DNA of 64,000 bases from an uncultured Gemmatimonadales bacterium (GTDB taxonomy: Bacteria; Gemmatimonadota; Gemmatimonadetes; Gemmatimonadales; GWC2-71-9). A program made the position numbers and the translations under genes. The notes beneath the pieces were generated by a model, which was given only the letters and a program-made list of their open reading frames with translations, searched no databases and had not been told where the DNA came from. The stretch spans positions 1,376,001 to 1,440,000 of the forward strand of contig CAWHFW010000005.1 of NCBI GenBank assembly GCA_963828735.1. The letters run 5' to 3'. Below are positions 4,574-10,125 of the stretch, piece after piece (positions within the stretch are counted from its first letter, which is position 1; the number at the start of each line of letters is the position of its first letter).

Positions 4574-5596
4574 TCAGGCTTTCGGCGCGGCCACCTCGCC
4601 GAGGTACCCCATCCCCTGCAGCCGGGCGATCCGCTGGCGGATCGGGGGGTGAGACGCCAGCGCGTCGGCGAACGCTCCCTCGCGCGCGGCGAGCAGCCCC
4701 GGCGCCGGATCCACGATGCAGAGATGCGCCGCGCCGAGCGTGATCGCGCGGGTCGGCGCCGAGGCCGCCTCGAGCTTTTCGAGCGCCGAGGCGAGCGCCA
4801 GGGGGTTACGCGTGAACTGCGCGCCAGTCGCATCGGCCAGGTACTCGCGCTTGCGGCTCACGGCCATCGCGAGGATCCGCGAGACGATCGGCGCCACGAT
4901 CAGGGTCAGCAGCCAGAACCCGAGCAGGAGGATCGCGAGCGGGTTGCCGCCCTTGCCACTCTCACCACTTCCCCCGCCGCCGCTCCGGCCGGCTCGCGAT
5001 CCCCGCATCGTCCGCCCCAGCCCATCGGACATCAGCGCGATCGCGCCGACCATGCCGGCGAGCAGGGTCATGAGCCGCACGTCCAGGTTCTGCACGTGCG
5101 CCATCTCGTGGGCGATGACGGCCTGCAGCTCATCCCGGTTCAGCGTCCGGAGCAGCCCCTGCGTCACCGCGATGCTGGCCGTAGCGGCATCGCGCCCCGT
5201 GGCGAAGGCATTGGGGTCGTCGTCGGGCACGATCCACACTCTGGGCTTGGGCAGCCCCGAGGCGATGGCCATCTCCTCGACCACGTTGACGAGCTGTCGC
5301 TCCTCGGCGGTGGCCGGCTCGACCACCTCCCGCGCGCCGGTGGACCACAACACCTGGCGCGGCCCGAAGCGCCACGAGTACCAGCAGATCCCCGCGGCGG
5401 CGAGGGTCGTGAAGATCCCGATGACCGGAATCACGTGATGGTATTCGCCCGCCGGGGCGTCGGCGGTCAGGAGGCCGAAGGCGAGGTCGCCGCCGAATCC
5501 GACCCAGGCGAAGAAGACGATGAAGCCGATGACGAGCCAGGTAGAGCGGCGGCGATTGGATTCCTGCTGGGCGAAGAGGTTCGCCGCCTCGGTCAC
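4574..5596 (-). CDS. htpX: M48 family zinc metalloprotease, HtpX-like
   Basis: PNAFATG, AHEMAH (HExxH), SRKREYLADA. The GTG start overlaps the lemA stop. Confidence 0.9.
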   Translation of the reverse strand: MTEAANLFAQQESNRRRSTWLVIGFIVFFAWVGFGGDLAFGLLTADAPAGEYHHVIPVIGIFTTLAAAGICWYSWRFGPRQVLWSTGAREVVEPATAEERQLVNVVEEMAIASGLPKPRVWIVPDDDPNAFATGRDAATASIAVTQGLLRTLNRDELQAVIAHEMAHVQNLDVRLMTLLAGMVGAIALMSDGLGRTMRGSRAGRSGGGGSGESGKGGNPLAILLLGFWLLTLIVAPIVSRILAMAVSRKREYLADATGAQFTRNPLALASALEKLEAASAPTRAITLGAAHLCIVDPAPGLLAAREGAFADALASHPPIRQRIARLQGMGYLGEVAAPKA

Positions 5597-6168
5597 GGCG
5601 CGGGTTTGTTCATCGAGAGATCGACCGTCGGCACGGCCCGCTCGGTGTCGTCGGTGATCTGCCACAGCTCCACGGGTGTGGCCTTGGCGAGCCCGGCGAC
5701 GAGCATCGTTGGGAAGGTGGCCTGGCGGGTGTTGTACTCGGTGGCGACGTCGTTGTACAGCTGGCGCGCGAACCCGATCTTGTTCTCGGTGCTGGTCAGC
5801 TCCTCTTGAAGCTGAGCCACGTTTCCCGTCGCCTTGAGGTCCGGGTAGGCCTCGGTCAGCGCGAACAGCCGGCCGAGCGCCTGCGTCAGCTCCCCCTCGG
5901 CCTTGGCCGTCTGCGCCACGCCCGTCGCGTTCACCGCCTTGTTCCGCGCCGCGATCACCGCCTCGAGCGTGTTCCGCTCGAAATCCATCGCGCCCTTCAC
6001 CGTGTTGACCAGGTTCGGGATGAGGTCGTGGCGGCGCTTGAGCTGTACGTCGATCTGCTTCCAGCCGTTGGCGACCTTGTTCTTGAGCCCGATCAGGCCG
6101 TTGTAGGCGCCGATGACCCAGAAGGCGACGAGCACGACGATCGCGAGGAGGATGAGCACGGCGATCAT
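5593..6168 (-). CDS. lemA: LemA family protein
   Basis: IDVQLKRRHDLIPNLV, EAYPDLKA, ENKIGFARQLYN. Confidence 0.95.
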   Translation of the reverse strand: MIAVLILLAIVVLVAFWVIGAYNGLIGLKNKVANGWKQIDVQLKRRHDLIPNLVNTVKGAMDFERNTLEAVIAARNKAVNATGVAQTAKAEGELTQALGRLFALTEAYPDLKATGNVAQLQEELTSTENKIGFARQLYNDVATEYNTRQATFPTMLVAGLAKATPVELWQITDDTERAVPTVDLSMNKPAP

Positions 6169-6192: not shown

Positions 6193-6828
6193 TTAGGGCG
6201 TCACCAGGCCGGCGAGGGCCTGGCGGAACGCCTCCGCGATGGCGGCGACATCGCCGTTGAGGCGAATGACCGGGTGCTGTTCGTCCACCAGCACCTCGAT
6301 GCCTGGAGCGATGGCGATGCGCCGGCACACGGTAGCCGAGCCACCCGCGTCCTCGACCGGCGTGAGCCAGCCGAGCACCGCGCGCCCCACCCGGCCGCGG
6401 CCGGTACCGGGCGCCTGCAGCAGCGCGAGGCGCTCCGGCCGGGGAAGTGCGGGTCCGAGCACGCCGGCGACACGGCGCTCGATGAGATCGCCGGTGAGCC
6501 CGGCGAACTCCCGGGTCATGGTCTCGAGCGTGGCCCCCTCCATCTGTCGCAGCTTGATGGCGAGCACCTGCAGCAGGTGGCGATAGGAGTACACCGCGGC
6601 AGTGCCGCGGCCCTCGGGCGGACTCACGAGCCCGCGGGCGACGTAGAACCGGATCGTCCGCTCGCTCGGCCGCGCGCGAGCCGCGGCGTTCACGGGCACG
6701 ACGCCCGACGCGTCGAGGATCCCACCCGAGAGCGCAGTCAGGTCCCGGAGACCCCAGGGCGCCAGCGTCCGATACTCCCGTAGCGTGGCGAGCGGATCGG
6801 ACGGGGCTGATACGAGGCCGGCGGTCAT
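6193..6828 (-). CDS. MerR-like HTH transcriptional regulator
   Basis: SERTIRFYVARGLVSPPEGRG...YSYRHLLQ winged-HTH signature. Confidence 0.8.
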   Translation of the reverse strand: MTAGLVSAPSDPLATLREYRTLAPWGLRDLTALSGGILDASGVVPVNAAARARPSERTIRFYVARGLVSPPEGRGTAAVYSYRHLLQVLAIKLRQMEGATLETMTREFAGLTGDLIERRVAGVLGPALPRPERLALLQAPGTGRGRVGRAVLGWLTPVEDAGGSATVCRRIAIAPGIEVLVDEQHPVIRLNGDVAAIAEAFRQALAGLVTP

Positions 6829-7229
6829 GCGGGACCGTGGCTCGCGCGGCCTTCAGTGGGGGGACCCTCGAGGGTCGCCATCACCATGCGCCGAAGGTGG
6901 TCGAGCGTGAACGGCTTGAGGAGGAGCGGGCAGCGCTGCAGATCCCGAGGCCAGTGCTCCGTCTCGGCAAAGGTGTCGCCCGTCATGAGGACGATGCGGT
7001 CCGCCAGGCGCGGCCAGCGGCGTGTCAGCGCGAGGTAGAAGGTGTCGCCGGACATCTGCGGCAGATGCAGATCCAGCAGCACGAGATCGACGTCCGCCTC
7101 GTCGAGGAGCTGGTAGGCCAGATGCGCGTCGGCGGCGGACACCACCTCGCATCCCATGGCGCGAAGCGCCCGCTCGAGCGTCCGGCGCAGGCACGCCTCG
7201 TCGTCCACGACGAGGATACGCGGGCTCAT
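6825..7229 (-). CDS. Single-domain response regulator
   Basis: ILVVDDE, LLDLHLP, MTG, KPF. Confidence 0.9.
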   Translation of the reverse strand: MSPRILVVDDEACLRRTLERALRAMGCEVVSAADAHLAYQLLDEADVDLVLLDLHLPQMSGDTFYLALTRRWPRLADRIVLMTGDTFAETEHWPRDLQRCPLLLKPFTLDHLRRMVMATLEGPPTEGRASHGPA

Positions 7230-8029
7230 GACGCGGCCGCCCGTCGGGCCGGCGTCAAGTACCGGCTGGTGACCATCGCGAGGGCGTCATCGATTGACAT
7301 GGACACGCGGAGCTCTCCCGCGGTGAGGCCGAAGACGGCGCGCAGGTGCATCTGCAGTGTCTTGGTCTTGCTGTAGCCCAGCTTCAGGGCGACGTCCTCC
7401 ACCGTGTATCCCGGATCGAGCAGCAGGCGGTGCGCGTACAGGAGCCGGGTCAGCACCATCACGACGCGGGGCGAGGGAAGGCCGACTTTGGTGAACCAGC
7501 GCTCGCAGGTACGCCTGGTGAGGCGGGCGCGCTCCGCCAGCGCGGTGACGGTCGGCCCCTCGTCGGGCGCGTGCAACATCGCTTCGAGCGCGGTGCGCAG
7601 CTCCGGCGGCAGCTCGCGCAGGATGGGCCCCATGCCCTGGATGACCTGCTGTGACGCGCTCTGCTCCAGCTCCGCCAACAGCGCATTCCTGAGCGATCCC
7701 GGCGCGTCCTCGAACCGATGCACCACGACCCGCCGAATCCCGGCCCGCCCCAGCTCCAGCAGCACGCCCGCCGTAGCCGGGGCGAGCTCCGTGTAGACCA
7801 GGAGCGGCAGGGAGGGGAAGAACTGGCGCAGACGGCCGATCCCGTGGGTTCGGGGCGTCGAGCCGCCCAGAAGCGGGTCCACAACGGCCATCTCTACCGG
7901 CTTCGCGCGAATGCCTTCCACGGCTTCGGGCCAGGTGGCCACGGCCTCCCAGACGAACCGTTCGGGGTCGAGTGAACGGAGTCGGAAAAGGCGTTCGGCG
8001 GGCACGGCGGCGAGAAGAAGATGTCGCAA
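7226..8029 (-). CDS. AraC-family transcriptional regulator with REC-like N-terminal domain
   Basis: C-terminal double HTH (TVTALAERARLTRRTCER; TVEDVALKLGYS). Start uncertain; TTG at 8029 chosen. Confidence 0.8.
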   Translation of the reverse strand: MRHLLLAAVPAERLFRLRSLDPERFVWEAVATWPEAVEGIRAKPVEMAVVDPLLGGSTPRTHGIGRLRQFFPSLPLLVYTELAPATAGVLLELGRAGIRRVVVHRFEDAPGSLRNALLAELEQSASQQVIQGMGPILRELPPELRTALEAMLHAPDEGPTVTALAERARLTRRTCERWFTKVGLPSPRVVMVLTRLLYAHRLLLDPGYTVEDVALKLGYSKTKTLQMHLRAVFGLTAGELRVSMSIDDALAMVTSRYLTPARRAAAS

Positions 8030-8052
8030 AACGGCCCCTATTTGTCGCAAAA
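8022..8052. promoter_or_regulatory. Direct repeat TGTCGCAAAA with 21-bp period, candidate AraC-family operator
   Basis: Exact 10-mers at 8022-8031 and 8043-8052, each followed by GGCC. They lie between divergent genes. Confidence 0.55.
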
Positions 8053-8129
8053 AAGGCCTAAACCGGTCGGTCGGCCCAGGGCAGATTGGCCAGACCCCCA
8101 CATCGCACAGTCAGATGAAAGGGCTTCCA

Positions 8130-8273
8130 ATGTCGCGTACCACGACCAAGTGGCTCGTCCTCGCGTCACTAACACTCGCGGGCCTGAGCTCGGCCGCCTG
8201 CACACGAAACGATGCCACCGGGCCCTCGGAGCAGCCGAAGCCCTCGTTCGAGGGACAAGGCGCAAATAACTAA
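8130..8273 (+). CDS. Small exported (lipo)peptide, 47 aa
   Basis: MSRTTTKWLVLASLTLAGLSSAAC-TRNDATGPSEQPKPSFEGQGANN: basic N-terminus, hydrophobic core, lipobox-like Cys24. Purine-rich RBS (GAAAGGG). Confidence 0.7.
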   Translation: MSRTTTKWLVLASLTLAGLSSAACTRNDATGPSEQPKPSFEGQGANN

Positions 8274-9571
8274 GTCGCCTGCAGGGCGAAATCCCGAAGC
8301 CCGATTGCCACTTCCCGGATGGCCGGCGGATGAACCTCGGCCGACGGGAGGAGATCGAGCTCTCGGAGTTCACAGCCGGACAGGTTGGCGATCGTCTGCT
8401 CGAATCGGAAGAACCACGAGTTGAGGCGGTGGTTCTCGGAGTGCGCCTGCCCCGCCAGGAGCAGGTCGCGCGCGCGCACGAATTGACCGAAGCGGGCGAG
8501 ACCCACTCCGGCCTTGAAGTAGAAATCGGCCAGCATGCTCGGCGGCATGCGGGTGCGCGCCGCGTCGCCCTCGGCCCGCCGCCGCTCGAACGCCATCCGG
8601 TTGCCCACCGCCGATTCCATGTCCATCAGCTCGAGCACCGCGTTTAGGCGAACGCCGAAGCTCGTCTTGGAGCGCAGGACGATGTCGAACGCGTTGCGCG
8701 CCGCGTCGTGTGCCCCGATCCCGAGCAGGGCCACGCCGAGATCGCCGAGCACCCGTGTGCGCTGCAGCAGATCGTCGCTCAGCAGGAACGAGCGGTAGAT
8801 CGCCTGGATGGCGTCCACCTGCCGGCCCTCGACCAGCAGCACCGCGCCCAGGTCCGCGTAGGCCATGGCCTCGACCTCTCGGAGCCCCGCGCGATCGGCG
8901 CCAGCCGCGACCTCCTCGGCGATCTGCCGCGCCAGCGGCAGGTTGCCCTGGCCGCGGAGCACGGCGCCACGGCCAAGCCTTGCCCGCAGCACGAGCACCT
9001 TGTCTCTCGCGGTGTCGGCGGCCGACTCGGCCGCGGAGTAGCAGGCCGTGGCAGCAGGCCAGCGCGCCAGGAGACGGTTGAGGCGGCCCGCGAACAGTGC
9101 GGAAGCGGCGAAATCCGGAGCCGGAACGCCCGGGCCATGGGTTCGAACGGCCAGCGCGAGCACCTCGAGCGCCTCTTCGAGCCGGCCCTCGTGCTCGAGG
9201 AAGTAGGCGTATGCCATCAGGCTGAGGCGGAGGCTGGCGAGGGACTGAGCGCCGACGGGAATAGCGTCGGTGATGCCGTGCAGGTGAGCGCTTTCGGGGG
9301 AATCGGCCGGCAGCTCGCGGAGATGACGGCGCACGGCATCCAGCTGCCAGAGCATCCCCTCCTGCCCTCCGGTGCTGTCATCCCGCATCAGCATCCGGTC
9401 CACCAGCCGCGAGACGAGATACGCTCCCAACGCCAGGCGGGCGGACAACTCGCGATCCCGCTCATGTTCGCCACGCGCGCGCTCGAGAAATGGAGCGTGC
9501 GTCAGAACATCGGCGGACGACTCGACCTCACCGAAGAGCTGCTGCGGCGTGAACAGATCGCGTCCTTCCAT
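8270..9571 (-). CDS. Tetratricopeptide-repeat-like helical protein
   Basis: Repeated TPR-type helices (ARLGRGAVLRGQGNLPLA, AYADLGAVLLVEG, VLGDLGVALLGIG, FYFKAGVGLARFG). No signal peptide seen. Confidence 0.75.
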   Translation of the reverse strand: MEGRDLFTPQQLFGEVESSADVLTHAPFLERARGEHERDRELSARLALGAYLVSRLVDRMLMRDDSTGGQEGMLWQLDAVRRHLRELPADSPESAHLHGITDAIPVGAQSLASLRLSLMAYAYFLEHEGRLEEALEVLALAVRTHGPGVPAPDFAASALFAGRLNRLLARWPAATACYSAAESAADTARDKVLVLRARLGRGAVLRGQGNLPLARQIAEEVAAGADRAGLREVEAMAYADLGAVLLVEGRQVDAIQAIYRSFLLSDDLLQRTRVLGDLGVALLGIGAHDAARNAFDIVLRSKTSFGVRLNAVLELMDMESAVGNRMAFERRRAEGDAARTRMPPSMLADFYFKAGVGLARFGQFVRARDLLLAGQAHSENHRLNSWFFRFEQTIANLSGCELRELDLLPSAEVHPPAIREVAIGLRDFALQAT

Positions 9572-9699
9572 GAAAAGTGTCGGGGGTCAGGAGCTAGTAT
9601 CGCCCCCCGGGCTCCCCCAGGCAAGGGCACGCAATTTCCGGCAGCCGACGGCAAAAATTGGGTGCCGATCGGGCGGGGGCGCGTCCCTATTCTGGCCCC

Positions 9700-10125
9700 A
9701 TGCGACGCGGCGTTACCATCCTCGAGCTTGCGCTGGTCCTGGTCATCATGGGCCTGGTCACCGGCATCGCGGTGCCCCGGTTCCAGCGGGTCGCCGACGG
9801 CCTCGCGGTTCGCCACGCAGCCCTCGAAGTCGTCTCGGCACACCGGCGCGCCAGGATGAGCGCCATCCTTCAGAATCGCCTTCTCGAGCTCGTTGTCACC
9901 GCCGACACCCTCGCCATCCGGGTTCCCGGAGCGGCGGTCGATCTGTGGCACACCCCGGGGCCGGCGTCCGAGCGGGTGACACTCACGGGCCCCACACGAG
10001 GGCCCGTCTTTTCGCCGGTGGGCCTGACGGTAGGCGTGTCCAATGGGACGTATCGCCTGACTCGAGGCACAGCCACCATCTCGGTTATCGTCTCCCGTCT
10101 CGGTCGCATTCGGCTCGGACCGTGA
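9700..10125 (+). CDS. Prepilin-type N-terminal cleavage/methylation protein (FimT/GspH-like)
   Basis: MRRG|VTILELALVLVIMG type IV prepilin motif with E5, and a C-terminal GR motif. Confidence 0.85.
   Translation: MRRGVTILELALVLVIMGLVTGIAVPRFQRVADGLAVRHAALEVVSAHRRARMSAILQNRLLELVVTADTLAIRVPGAAVDLWHTPGPASERVTLTGPTRGPVFSPVGLTVGVSNGTYRLTRGTATISVIVSRLGRIRLGP

Follow-up and report, generated by a model that had tools for sequence, protein, structure and literature searches.

The small open reading frame at positions 8130–8273 (forward strand) of the window, the 64,000-nucleotide stretch of Gemmatimonadales DNA analysed here, is a real gene under purifying selection. It encodes a 47-aa propeptide (MSRTTTKWLVLASLTLAGLSSAACTRNDATGPSEQPKPSFEGQGANN) and belongs to a cassette with a convergent gene for a TPR protein and a divergent gene for an AraC-type regulator. 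All the elements named in a preliminary description of this DNA, that is the ORF, its leader, the stop overlap, the divergent AraC gene and the TPR gene, are present in the sequence. We found no published description of such a lipopeptide-TPR-AraC cassette. The reading that we favor, that the cassette is a Rap-Phr-like peptide circuit in which the C-terminal unit of the propeptide is the ligand of the TPR protein, has in our judgement about an even chance of being correct.

Conservation and a coding signature identify the propeptide gene. The ORF was kept in 30 of 30 same-genus loci, with a median dN/dS of 0.28. Differences among these loci fell on the three codon positions at 0.28, 0.18 and 0.48, the third being the highest, and pN was 0.23 versus a pS of 0.54. 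Only one of the six reading frames of the region, that of the ORF, is free of stop codons. A Shine-Dalgarno-like GAAAGGG (8117–8123, forward strand) lies 7 nt 5′ of the ATG and is conserved among the upstream sequences of the genus. Throughout the family, all 93 detected members start with ATG and 87 have a Shine-Dalgarno-like 4-mer, compared with 15% at random control positions. The whole 4.78-Mb genome contains 118 ATG-initiated ORFs of 28–110 aa with a lipoprotein-like head as judged by our heuristic. Since ORF 8130–8273 is the only one of the 118 with the C-terminal motif class, and is also retained in every genus locus, its occurrence goes beyond chance. A weak transcription signal came from low-depth contigs in RNA libraries, which are strandless and may reflect DNA carry-over.

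Residues 1–23 are predicted to form a signal peptide and Cys24 (codon 8199–8201) is the predicted lipobox Cys, leaving a predicted mature part of 24 aa; signal peptides and lipoboxes were called by in-house heuristics throughout. The n-region carries R3 and K7, the hydrophobic core reaches a maximal 15-residue Kyte-Doolittle mean of 1.79, and the lipobox reads S-A-A-C24. Long lipoprotein-like ORFs in this genome most often have a lipobox of this x-A-A-C type (LAAC 23, AAAC 13). The Cys is invariant in 31 of 31 genus sequences, and its presence in 93 of 93 detected family members follows from the construction of the detector. After it, 79 of the 93 members have a short conserved x-T-[AG]-P segment. 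The leader had been described as a signal or lipoprotein leader; a leader is indeed present, and it is specifically of the lipoprotein type with an invariant Cys, which had been listed as one option only.

The last seven residues, EGQGANN (8250–8270, forward strand), are the predicted signal or ligand part, as judged from genus conservation and in-frame repeats. The genus consensus is E-x-Q-G-[AGS]-N-N, with E41, Q43, G44 and N47 invariant in the 31 sequences. At five loci the unit is present in 2–4 in-frame copies that differ synonymously, and three further loci elsewhere carry HTIGSGN three times, the seven-residue G-P-D-A-G-S-H four times and GGLVLGSGN twice, respectively. In-frame tandem copies of 7–9 residues, kept by selection, suggest a processed unit and not a folded domain. 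By eye, a G-S-x-[NTH]-type ending recurs across clades, and a looser pattern that also accepts NN ends fits 48 of the 93 family members. The mature parts contain no further Cys in 52 of the 93 and exactly two in the other 41, never an odd number, and in some species the unit is placed in a two-Cys loop. This parity fits disulfide formation outside the cytoplasm. Members of one clade share a conserved unit, which changes from clade to clade and among the paralogues of a single genome: paralogous cassettes in nine genomes always differed in their unit, and each of two TPR orthogroups retained in five genomes keeps its own loop type. The unit hardly varies within the genus, whereas identity between the TPR proteins drops to ∼50% there. 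A scan for mutual information between peptide and TPR columns yielded no usable signal, being confounded by phylogeny.

The TAA stop of the propeptide gene (8271–8273) shares bases with the stop of the TPR gene (8270–9571, reverse strand), the two reading CTAA/TTAG at 8270–8273, which confirms the overlap noted previously. At 93 of 115 Gemmatimonadota loci we counted an ORF with a lipoprotein signal that lies no more than 480 bp from the TPR stop and on the opposite strand. The corresponding controls gave 1 of 115 on the same strand, and 0 of 115 and 0 of 115 within the TPR gene body. When the count was confined to well-matched loci (TPR-HMM E ≤ 1e-20 and 300 bp or more of DNA downstream, n = 90), 84 had a convergent ORF of 40–80 aa with a lipoprotein-type signal peptide, and in six the peptide was undetected. 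The proposed check, whether TPR homologues consistently adjoin a small signal-peptide ORF, was thus nearly always answered in the affirmative. Stop-codon bases are shared by 26 of the 93 pairs, and 39 more pairs lie within 30 nt of each other. One genome with 11 TPR paralogue loci retains the peptide at eight of them and the AraC gene at only two, which marks the peptide-TPR pair as the core of the cassette; many such pairs elsewhere also have no adjoining AraC gene. What is conserved, then, is TPR and peptide, usually with AraC and sometimes with a receiver gene (REC). The TPR family occurs in 201 of 401 genomes of the phylum Gemmatimonadota, with up to 11 paralogues per genome. The homologues were named as Gemmatimonadales or Gemmatimonadota, and none as Firmicutes/Bacillota.

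The TPR gene encodes a cytoplasmic all-TPR protein of 433 aa, the predicted peptide receptor. It scored 27.6 bits against Pfam TPR_12, below the cut-off, which homologues pass, and gave no NCBIfam match. It has neither a signal peptide nor a TM-like segment (maximal 19-residue hydropathy 1.04), and Pfam detected no HTH in it or in eight homologues. The AF2 model (pLDDT 89.4) is an all-TPR superhelix of ∼21 helices. A PDB profile search matched it to TPR proteins, with NprR at an E of only 0.012–0.015, and no significant sequence homology to Rap was found. By structure (Foldseek and VIA) the model matched LGN, NprR and Rap, the best bacterial VIA matches being NprR (Z 22.0), RapH-Spo0F (21.6, aligned over model residues 43–384), Rap of pLS20 (21.6), RapJ (21.0) and RapF-ComA (20.4). 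Eukaryotic LGN/Pins scored higher (Z 24–25.7, 288–292 residues aligned at ∼17% identity), and generic TPR proteins scored Z 18–19. Since LGN ranks above Rap and NprR, the fold match to the latter two is not specific. The preliminary description had proposed a quorum-sensing-like analogue of the RRNPP systems. This is partly supported: the gene adjacency holds and the C-terminus is specific to clade and paralogue, while the likeness to Rap and NprR does not rise clearly above that to generic TPR proteins.

The lipobox Cys and the x-T-[AG]-P segment behind it would also suit an envelope mini-lipoprotein in the periplasm or at the surface, with a structural, adhesive, lytic or kin-recognition role. 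The TPR and AraC proteins would then control it or read the state of the envelope from it, and the TPR protein would never touch the peptide. In size and composition the propeptide seems similar to colicin lysis proteins, entericidins and other known mini-lipoproteins. Disulfide loops suit an extracytoplasmic role, and a variable surface tag would diversify between paralogues too. We nevertheless consider this explanation unlikely. The tightest and most widespread linkage is that of peptide and TPR protein, even without an adjacent regulator, and the TPR protein cannot regulate a gene alone because it has no DNA-binding domain. The selected tandem copies suggest processing, and the propeptide matched no known lipoprotein family in Pfam or NCBIfam.

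Divergent from the propeptide gene, as had been described, lies the AraC-type gene (7226–8101, reverse strand; Pfam HTH_18, 2.3e-13). Its longest ORF starts with GTG at 8101, and the true start is likely TTG at 8029. The AF2 model of the product (pLDDT 89.1) has a (βα)5 fold at residues 27–145, the first ∼25 residues having a pLDDT of 40–54, and the best Foldseek hits were FixJ, PorX, RcsB and CheY. In our alignment D75-P76 is kept while the acidic pair after β1 is replaced (LLAAVP). Because of this replacement, and because Pfam Response_reg gave no match, we regard the N-terminal part as a pseudo-receiver. A stand-alone canonical receiver of 134 aa follows (6825–7229, reverse strand; Response_reg, 1.1e-16), with its DD, D, T and K motifs visible in the sequence. 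It shares 4 nt at its start with the end of the AraC gene, and it in turn overlaps by 4 nt a gene for a MerR-type regulator (6193–6828). LemA (5593–6168) and an M48/HtpX-like peptidase (4574 to ∼5560) are encoded beyond, these three genes being on the reverse strand and assigned by Pfam. REC stands downstream of AraC in the family of this cassette (f1) and at some loci of a second family (f2). In contrast, the MerR-LemA-M48 block adjoins the cassette in f1 only and is absent from paralogues and other families. MerR-lemA-htpX, which had been suggested as the output of the system, is by synteny a neighbor in one family only and lies outside the conserved core.

A direct repeat, TGTCGCAAAA, at 8022–8031 and 8043–8052 (forward strand) is the predicted operator of the AraC-type regulator. 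It is placed upstream of the propeptide gene, in the control region that this gene shares with the divergent AraC gene. Its spacing of 21 bp from start to start was kept in 30 of 30 genus loci, and only one other near-match occurs in the genome. Other genera have repeats at a spacing of 20–21 bp whose sequence is clade-specific. A conserved box, CAGATTGG (8082–8089, forward strand), noticed on visual inspection of the aligned upstream sequences of the genus ∼45 nt 5′ of the propeptide ATG, may be the core promoter or the region of transcript start; no match to a σ70 consensus was found there.

In the favored Rap-Phr-like circuit, Lgt and Lsp would process the precursor at Cys24 and a protease would free the small hydrophilic C-terminal unit, repeats giving several copies. 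The unit would leave through porins, return through an Opp-type permease and bind the concave face of the TPR protein. The genome encodes one Lsp and four full OppA-type binding proteins. The TPR protein, without a DNA-binding domain, would act as Rap does on ComA or Spo0F, binding the pseudo-receiver-AraC protein, the stand-alone receiver or both, an interaction that the peptide would either relieve or trigger. The AraC protein would bind the direct repeat and drive both the peptide gene and its own operon, an autoinduction loop. We believe that the RRNPP analogy is strengthened because the unit is tandemly duplicated, the regulator is of receiver type and the operator co-varies. Two features are less comfortable. 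The invariant lipobox Cys predicts a membrane anchor, which would be awkward for a diffusible signal and would require a releasing protease. Disulfide loops would be reduced once imported into the cytoplasm, which would count against the circuit.

A circuit with no need for release, outer-membrane crossing or an importer is conceivable. The TPR protein would hold the C-terminal unit of the cytoplasmic precursor, and export would free it to act, or stop acting, on the AraC-type regulator, with no re-uptake. Such a partner switch would monitor Sec/lipoprotein export capacity, which would fit envelope-quality neighbors such as lemA and htpX; the f1 cassette does lie upstream of the MerR-LemA-M48 peptidase genes, and unit repeats would titrate more TPR protein. 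A TPR protein, an AraC-family regulator and an exported protein also match the logic of IpgC-MxiE as given in excerpts of PMC3299695 and PMC10701871. We doubt this explanation. The strict parity of further Cys residues points to an exported, oxidised form as the functional one, the lemA-htpX neighborhood is missing from paralogues and other families, many TPR-peptide pairs lack an adjacent AraC gene, and no secretion-system genes were found in the flanks examined. Least probable by far is a bacteriocin- or RiPP-like precursor with the TPR protein as scaffold or immunity factor and AraC as its regulator: the short gene, leader, hypervariable core, Cys pairs and multi-core repeats would suit it, but the neighborhood of the pair has no conserved modifying enzyme, dedicated transporter or membrane protein of the immunity type, the leader is a Sec/lipoprotein signal and not a RiPP leader, and the unit is strongly conserved across the whole genus.

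In textbooks, the reading of peptide signals by cytoplasmic TPR receptors belongs to the biology of Gram-positive bacteria. If the Rap-Phr-like circuit is correct, RRNPP-style quorum sensing would not be a Gram-positive speciality and would extend to bacteria with an outer membrane. It would provide ready-made orthogonal peptide/receptor pairs from a diderm and a first means of approaching cell-cell or envelope signalling in a soil phylum that is abundant but little studied. A wider version, which we rate as slightly less probable, is a phylum-wide peptide language in Gemmatimonadota: lipid-anchored mini-propeptides, with 1–4 unit copies or disulfide-closed, would release a unit that Rap-like TPR receptors read inside the cell, and these receptors would control the pseudo-receiver AraC regulators. 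The circuit would raise the question by what route a propeptide with a lipid anchor is set free and passes two membranes, and the paralogue-specific units (linear, repeated or disulfide-closed) make specificity directly testable. Even if the signalling interpretation is wrong, there remain a real micro-gene family, widely missed or unnamed, and a class of pseudo-receiver AraC regulators with a defined candidate operator.

Among known systems, LGN/Pins is a eukaryotic polarity protein whose TPR superhelix binds extended peptides on its concave face; the match is structural only, with no functional link. Colicin lysis proteins and entericidins are 40–50 aa long with a lipobox and a Gly/Ser/Thr/Asn-rich mature part of ∼25 aa, and are not known to be paired with TPR proteins. 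Enterococcal sex pheromones such as cCF10 are cut from lipoprotein precursors, and the pheromone is part of the signal peptide; they share the source of the signal with the cassette, whereas the unit here is C-terminal. In Salmonella the TPR chaperone SicA is a co-activator of the AraC-family regulator InvF. In Shigella, secretion activity is reported by the TPR chaperone IpgC together with the AraC-type activator MxiE, and this system too joins a TPR protein with an AraC-family activator and an exported partner protein in one regulatory unit, according to passages in PMC3299695 and PMC10701871. The TPR protein here differs, having 433 aa and ∼21 helices and a 47-aa Sec/lipoprotein precursor as partner, and did not fall among the class II type III secretion chaperones.

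In NprR-NprX, PlcR-PapR, AimR-AimP, PrgX and Rgg, too, a TPR protein serves as the peptide receptor and the propeptide gene lies next to it; among bacterial structures NprR gave the best match (Z 22.0). In the HTH-TPR members of RRNPPA a receptor-dependent promoter drives the peptide gene, as the direct repeats suggest here; the TPR protein here has no HTH, DNA binding being left to a separate AraC-type protein. Rap-phr is a co-directional operon, while the genes here are convergent and often share stop-codon bases. A Cys pair closes many of the units here, and the output regulator is of the AraC type. Within the genus the unit is near-invariant, in contrast to the rapid pherotype turnover typical of Rap-Phr. 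The host is a diderm of the Gemmatimonadota, whereas RRNPPA systems are described in Firmicutes/Bacillota in the portions of PMC10075063 and PMC9765709 available to us. The lipoprotein-type signal Cys is invariant here, while SEC/SPII signals were predicted for a minority of RRNPPA propeptides, 211 of 2,734, in the part of PMC9765709 that reports them. Tandem pheromone copies, in turn, are a known trait of Rap-Phr propeptides (extracts of PMC11343458 and PMC9765709). The cassette further resembles Rap-Phr in placing a cytoplasmic all-TPR protein without a DNA-binding domain beside the gene for a propeptide that is exported by Sec and carries its variable, specific part at the C-terminus. With Z 20–21.6, Rap proteins stand near the top of the bacterial structural matches, and the ComA-like regulator and the Spo0F-like single receiver that Rap targets are paralleled here by the pseudo-receiver-AraC protein and the stand-alone REC.

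The small ORF at 8130-8273 (+) occupies the 168-bp gap separating two minus-strand genes, one for a TPR protein (8270-9571) and one for an AraC-type regulator (7226-8101), from which it is divergent. A preliminary description had taken it for a tiny exported product whose stop overlaps that of the convergent TPR gene. Both observations were confirmed: the 47-aa product has its start, a leader with a basic n-region and a hydrophobic core, S-A-A-C24 and, after Cys24, TRNDATGPS, a Pro-containing spacer and the polar tail FEGQGANN, and the two stops have the bases CTAA in common. By a heuristic scan, x-A-A-C is the most frequent lipobox among the long lipoprotein-like ORFs of this genome. The same kind of heuristic, applied to the whole genome, found a lipoprotein-like head in 118 small ATG-ORFs, of which the peptide ORF alone has this tail class. 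Searches of Pfam and NCBIfam with the peptide gave no match, and exact copies of its sequence exist in public collections, labelled only "hypothetical protein".

The signalling proposal hinged on conservation of the ORF. In tblastn searches, each of the 30 genus loci fetched had the small ORF in the corresponding position, on the strand opposite to the TPR gene; every copy begins with ATG and its frame is unbroken. The 4-nt stop overlap is kept at 20 of these loci, and in the remainder the two genes are 3-61 nt apart. Pairwise differences at codon positions 1, 2 and 3 were 0.28, 0.18 and 0.48, with a median dN/dS of 0.28 (mean pN 0.23 versus pS 0.54), and over the 30 sequences no stop was present in the peptide frame, compared with 16-40 in the other five frames. 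Residues M1, R3, A23, C24, T30, P32, S33, E41, Q43, G44 and N47 do not vary within the genus. In the wider family, ATG is the start codon of all 93 propeptides, and an SD-like 4-mer is found at -18 to -5 in 87 of the 93 genes versus 15% at random positions. On this sequence evidence the small ORF is a genuine gene. Contigs from soil metatranscriptomes were also found, one of 151 nt (run X20) that matches 8119-8269, very nearly the extent of the peptide ORF, without a single difference, and another of 387 nt that differs at 16 positions from 7920-8303. In single runs parts of the stretch had no contig cover; the RNA libraries were available as contigs only, which are silent on absence, strand and level. 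Given low depth, strandless contigs and possible DNA carry-over, we regard these matches as a weak hint of expression.

We also followed the pairing of the two genes through the Gemmatimonadota. The TPR protein is single-copy in G000, whose contig C5 contains the window at 1376001-1440000. Of 36 further genomes from the genus, 35 encode it, with 50-84% identity; among its homologues, the named ones are from Gemmatimonadales MAGs. With a cut-off of E<=1e-8, a profile built from 43 TPR proteins matched 201 of 401 sampled genomes, with up to 11 paralogues in one genome. (The tally counts one unpublished genome, G198, from which no locus was drawn.) By family, matches were found in 96/166 genomes of f1, which includes the window's genus, 73/93 of f2, 13/70 of f7, 4/4 of f8, 4/7 of f4, 3/3 of f11 and 2/3 of f12. 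The matches in f11 and f12 (E>1e-19) have neither an AraC gene nor a peptide and were set aside as generic TPR proteins that do not belong to the family. We scanned 115 loci for an ORF of 40-80 aa that encodes a lipoprotein-type head. Within 480 bp of the TPR stop, such an ORF (median 47 aa) is present on the strand opposite to the TPR gene at 93 of them; in control scans the same detector gave 1/115 for the TPR strand and 0/115 twice for the TPR gene body. The check proposed earlier, a search for small exported ORFs beside TPR homologues, thus came out in favour of the pairing, with a peptide at 84 of 90 loci that have a TPR-HMM match of E<=1e-20 and 300 bp or more of DNA downstream. Stop-codon bases are common to the peptide ORF and the TPR gene in 26 of 93 cases, and a further 39 ORFs lie within 30 nt. 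No peptide ORF was detected at L038, L041, L055, L057, L068 and L094, nor at weak phylum-level TPR matches; L044 had just 136 bp of DNA available, and the peptide of L098 is present and was missed by the stricter detector. At L045 (G015:C37) the matches to TPR and to AraC are each broken up between several frames and the peptide ORF is intact, which may reflect cassette decay or assembly errors.

The surroundings of the pair are less constant. Downstream of the AraC-type gene, and overlapping it by 4 nt, is a gene for a canonical receiver, REC (6825-7229 (-)), followed by a MerR-type gene with another 4-nt overlap, LemA and an M48 peptidase. The AraC-REC-MerR-lemA-htpX order described earlier therefore stands in the window, but it does not extend beyond the main copy in f1, where the full order is a divergent pilin-like gene, TPR, peptide on the opposite strand, AraC, REC, MerR, LemA and M48 peptidase. 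Paralogues and f2 loci retain only TPR-peptide-AraC, sometimes with REC. In G312, a genome of f8, the peptide is present at 8 of 11 TPR loci and an AraC gene at just 2 of 11, the other neighbours being unrelated; the TPR-peptide pair is therefore the core of the cassette. The ORFs at the AraC position beside the G312 paralogues are not AraC-like (hhalign probability <1%). The pilin-like neighbour (9658-10125 (+)) has weak matches to GspH and N_methyl; it and the TPR gene are divergent, and across f1 it is conserved beside the main cassette copy. The MerR-type protein (6193-6828 (-)) has 211 aa, its HTH begins only at about residue 48, its C-terminal half has no Pfam assignment, and it is strongly conserved beside LemA in f1. 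At L094 (G293:C191), a natural variant, MerR-LemA-M48 peptidase comes immediately after the TPR gene, and AraC, REC and peptide genes were not detected there.

Propeptide tails differ by clade. In the window's genus they follow E-x-QG[AS]NN; other f1 genera and f2 have tails with two-Cys loops, such as CDQNSQNTCH, CESQGSGNVVCH and CPITSGSSTCLTH; and those of f7 and f8 end in Φ-G-S-G-[NHT]. A short x-T-[AG]-P-type segment follows the Cys in 79 of 93 propeptides. Five genus genomes (L018-L022) carry the unit [LV]E[NST]QGSNN in 2-4 in-frame copies that differ by synonymous changes, which indicates that the amino-acid unit is maintained by selection. Other units are also repeated: HTIGSGN three times, the seven-residue G-P-D-A-G-S-H four times, GGLVLGSGN twice and a short M-G-S-G-[GN] motif three times. 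Further Cys residues number zero in 52 of 93 propeptides and exactly two in 41, with an odd number in none, as predicted if disulfides form outside the cytoplasm. Wherever one genome has paralogous cassettes (G020, G043, G095, G265, G302, G377, G390, G130 and G312), their tails always differ. A maximum-likelihood tree of 30 TPR proteins places an old duplication, retained in five genomes, with support of 97-100; CD[VWY]… loops go with one orthogroup and CD[TI][NS]… loops with the other. Since kin share loop labels, this pattern shows stable cognate pairs, not independent co-evolution. Mutual information between peptide positions and TPR columns in 31 genus pairs gave no usable signal, the top pairs merely tracking phylogeny. 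Two genus loci, L017 and L030, have 2-4 extra residues (GPKP and GK) beyond the conserved …QGANN end; if the unit is the ligand, its C-terminus must therefore be trimmed or need not be free.

Pfam matches the TPR protein (433 aa) weakly, to TPR_12 (27.6 bits). The protein has neither a signal nor a TM-like segment, no HTH or other further domain, and no NCBIfam family. Its AF2 model (pLDDT 89.4, pTM 0.83) has about 21 helices. R166, Y178, N210, R271, D277 and R292 are among the residues conserved in the TPR family. A PDB profile search ranked generic TPR proteins best (CTPR 3e-9, LGN 8e-8), with NprR at just E 0.012-0.015. In Foldseek the top match was LGN (4e-6), with Rap pLS20 reaching 5e-5. 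VIA-align gave Z 24-25.7 for LGN/Pins, 22.0 for NprR, 21.6 for both RapH-Spo0F (model 43-384) and Rap pLS20, 21.0 for RapJ and phi3T Rap, 20.4 for RapF-ComA and 18-19 for generic TPR proteins. Judged from the predicted model, RRNPP receptors are the best bacterial structural matches, yet not clear of the TPR background. In a protein atlas the nearest clusters were Gemmatimonadota TPR proteins; Bacteroidota and Ignavibacteriota rows scored 0.94 and are leads only. The f7 open frames (L048, L050-L053 and L056) encode 590-626 aa, with about 170-200 aa extra at the N-terminus in which no Pfam domain was found at E<=0.01.

The AraC-type protein (Pfam HTH_18, 2.3e-13) is modelled by AF2 (pLDDT 89.1) with a (beta-alpha)5 receiver fold at residues 27-145 and an HTH; its best Foldseek matches are FixJ, PorX, RcsB and CheY. 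D75-P76 is retained; since the acidic pair after beta-1 and a Pfam receiver match are both missing, we term this part a pseudo-receiver. The longest ORF begins with ~25 residues of pLDDT 40-54 whose coding DNA is a direct repeat; translation therefore probably starts at TTG 8029. The repeat, TGTCGCAAAA, lies at 8022-8031 and 8043-8052 with 21-bp spacing at 30 of 30 genus loci, and other clades have their own repeats at the same place with 20-21-bp spacing (TGCCGCAAAA, TGTCCCAAAA, TGGCACAAAA, TGATAGGAAA, TTTCCCACGG and TGACGGAAT). Direct repeats two helical turns apart beside a promoter are typical of AraC/XylS-type activators. By this analogy the regulator would bind the repeat and control two units, the divergently oriented peptide gene and the regulator's own operon. 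A sigma-70 scan of 7800-9800 returned 0 matches, and the sigma-70 consensus may not be this phylum's promoter type. An intrinsic terminator for the TPR transcript (hairpin 8080-8057(-); 2 matches versus 1.4 expected) was rejected, since folding the 30 genus loci gave no conserved hairpin. An Asn-codon attenuator was also rejected: there is no downstream gene in the same direction, only one genus has the Asn pair, and conservation extends to the signal peptide. The genome's only other near-match to the double half-site (G000:C5:1931278, outside the window; L116/L117) has one mismatch and a similar spacer, and is ~95 nt upstream of a gene for a secreted 333-aa protein with no Pfam match. Its GDSW…GGND…HP motifs suggest that this protein may be an SGNH/GDSL-type hydrolase. 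A search of 30 other genomes from the genus at E<=1e-20 did not recover it, and thus no conserved regulon member emerged.

We believe that a Rap-Phr-like circuit is the most economical reading of the cassette, and give it roughly an even chance. The facts behind it are genomic, and we infer all of its biochemical steps. The propeptide would be exported and its lipobox processed, a protease would free the hydrophilic C-terminal unit or units, and the freed unit would be re-imported and bind the TPR protein; this in turn would control the pseudo-receiver-AraC protein and/or the stand-alone receiver, and the AraC protein would drive the peptide gene. Genes for a single Lsp and for four complete OppA-type binding proteins are present in the genome. 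Against the circuit, the unit is near-invariant within the genus, disulfide loops would be reduced inside the cell, release of the unit and an outer-membrane route are unaccounted for, and the fold similarity is non-specific, with unit-TPR binding a predicted step. The invariant lipid-anchor Cys also counts against it. An envelope mini-lipoprotein, merely regulated by the TPR and AraC proteins, is rather unlikely. Ranking next, and also improbable, is a secretion-coupled partner switch like that of IpgC-MxiE (PMC3299695 and PMC10701871). A bacteriocin or RiPP-like precursor seems very improbable.

The Rap-Phr-like circuit can be set beside known systems. PMC10075063, PMC9765709 and PMC11343458 treat RRNPP(A) systems as belonging to Firmicutes/Bacillota; in the last two, multi-copy propeptides are common, and in PMC9765709 SPII-type signals are a minority of RRNPPA propeptides (211/2,734). 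In the literature searched, with full text in subscription journals largely outside it, we found no description of a cassette of this kind from any diderm, Gemmatimonadota included. On present evidence the cassette may work like Rap-Phr, but it differs in phylum and output; since its homology scores also lie within the TPR background, we place it beside Rap-Phr and do not file it as a member.
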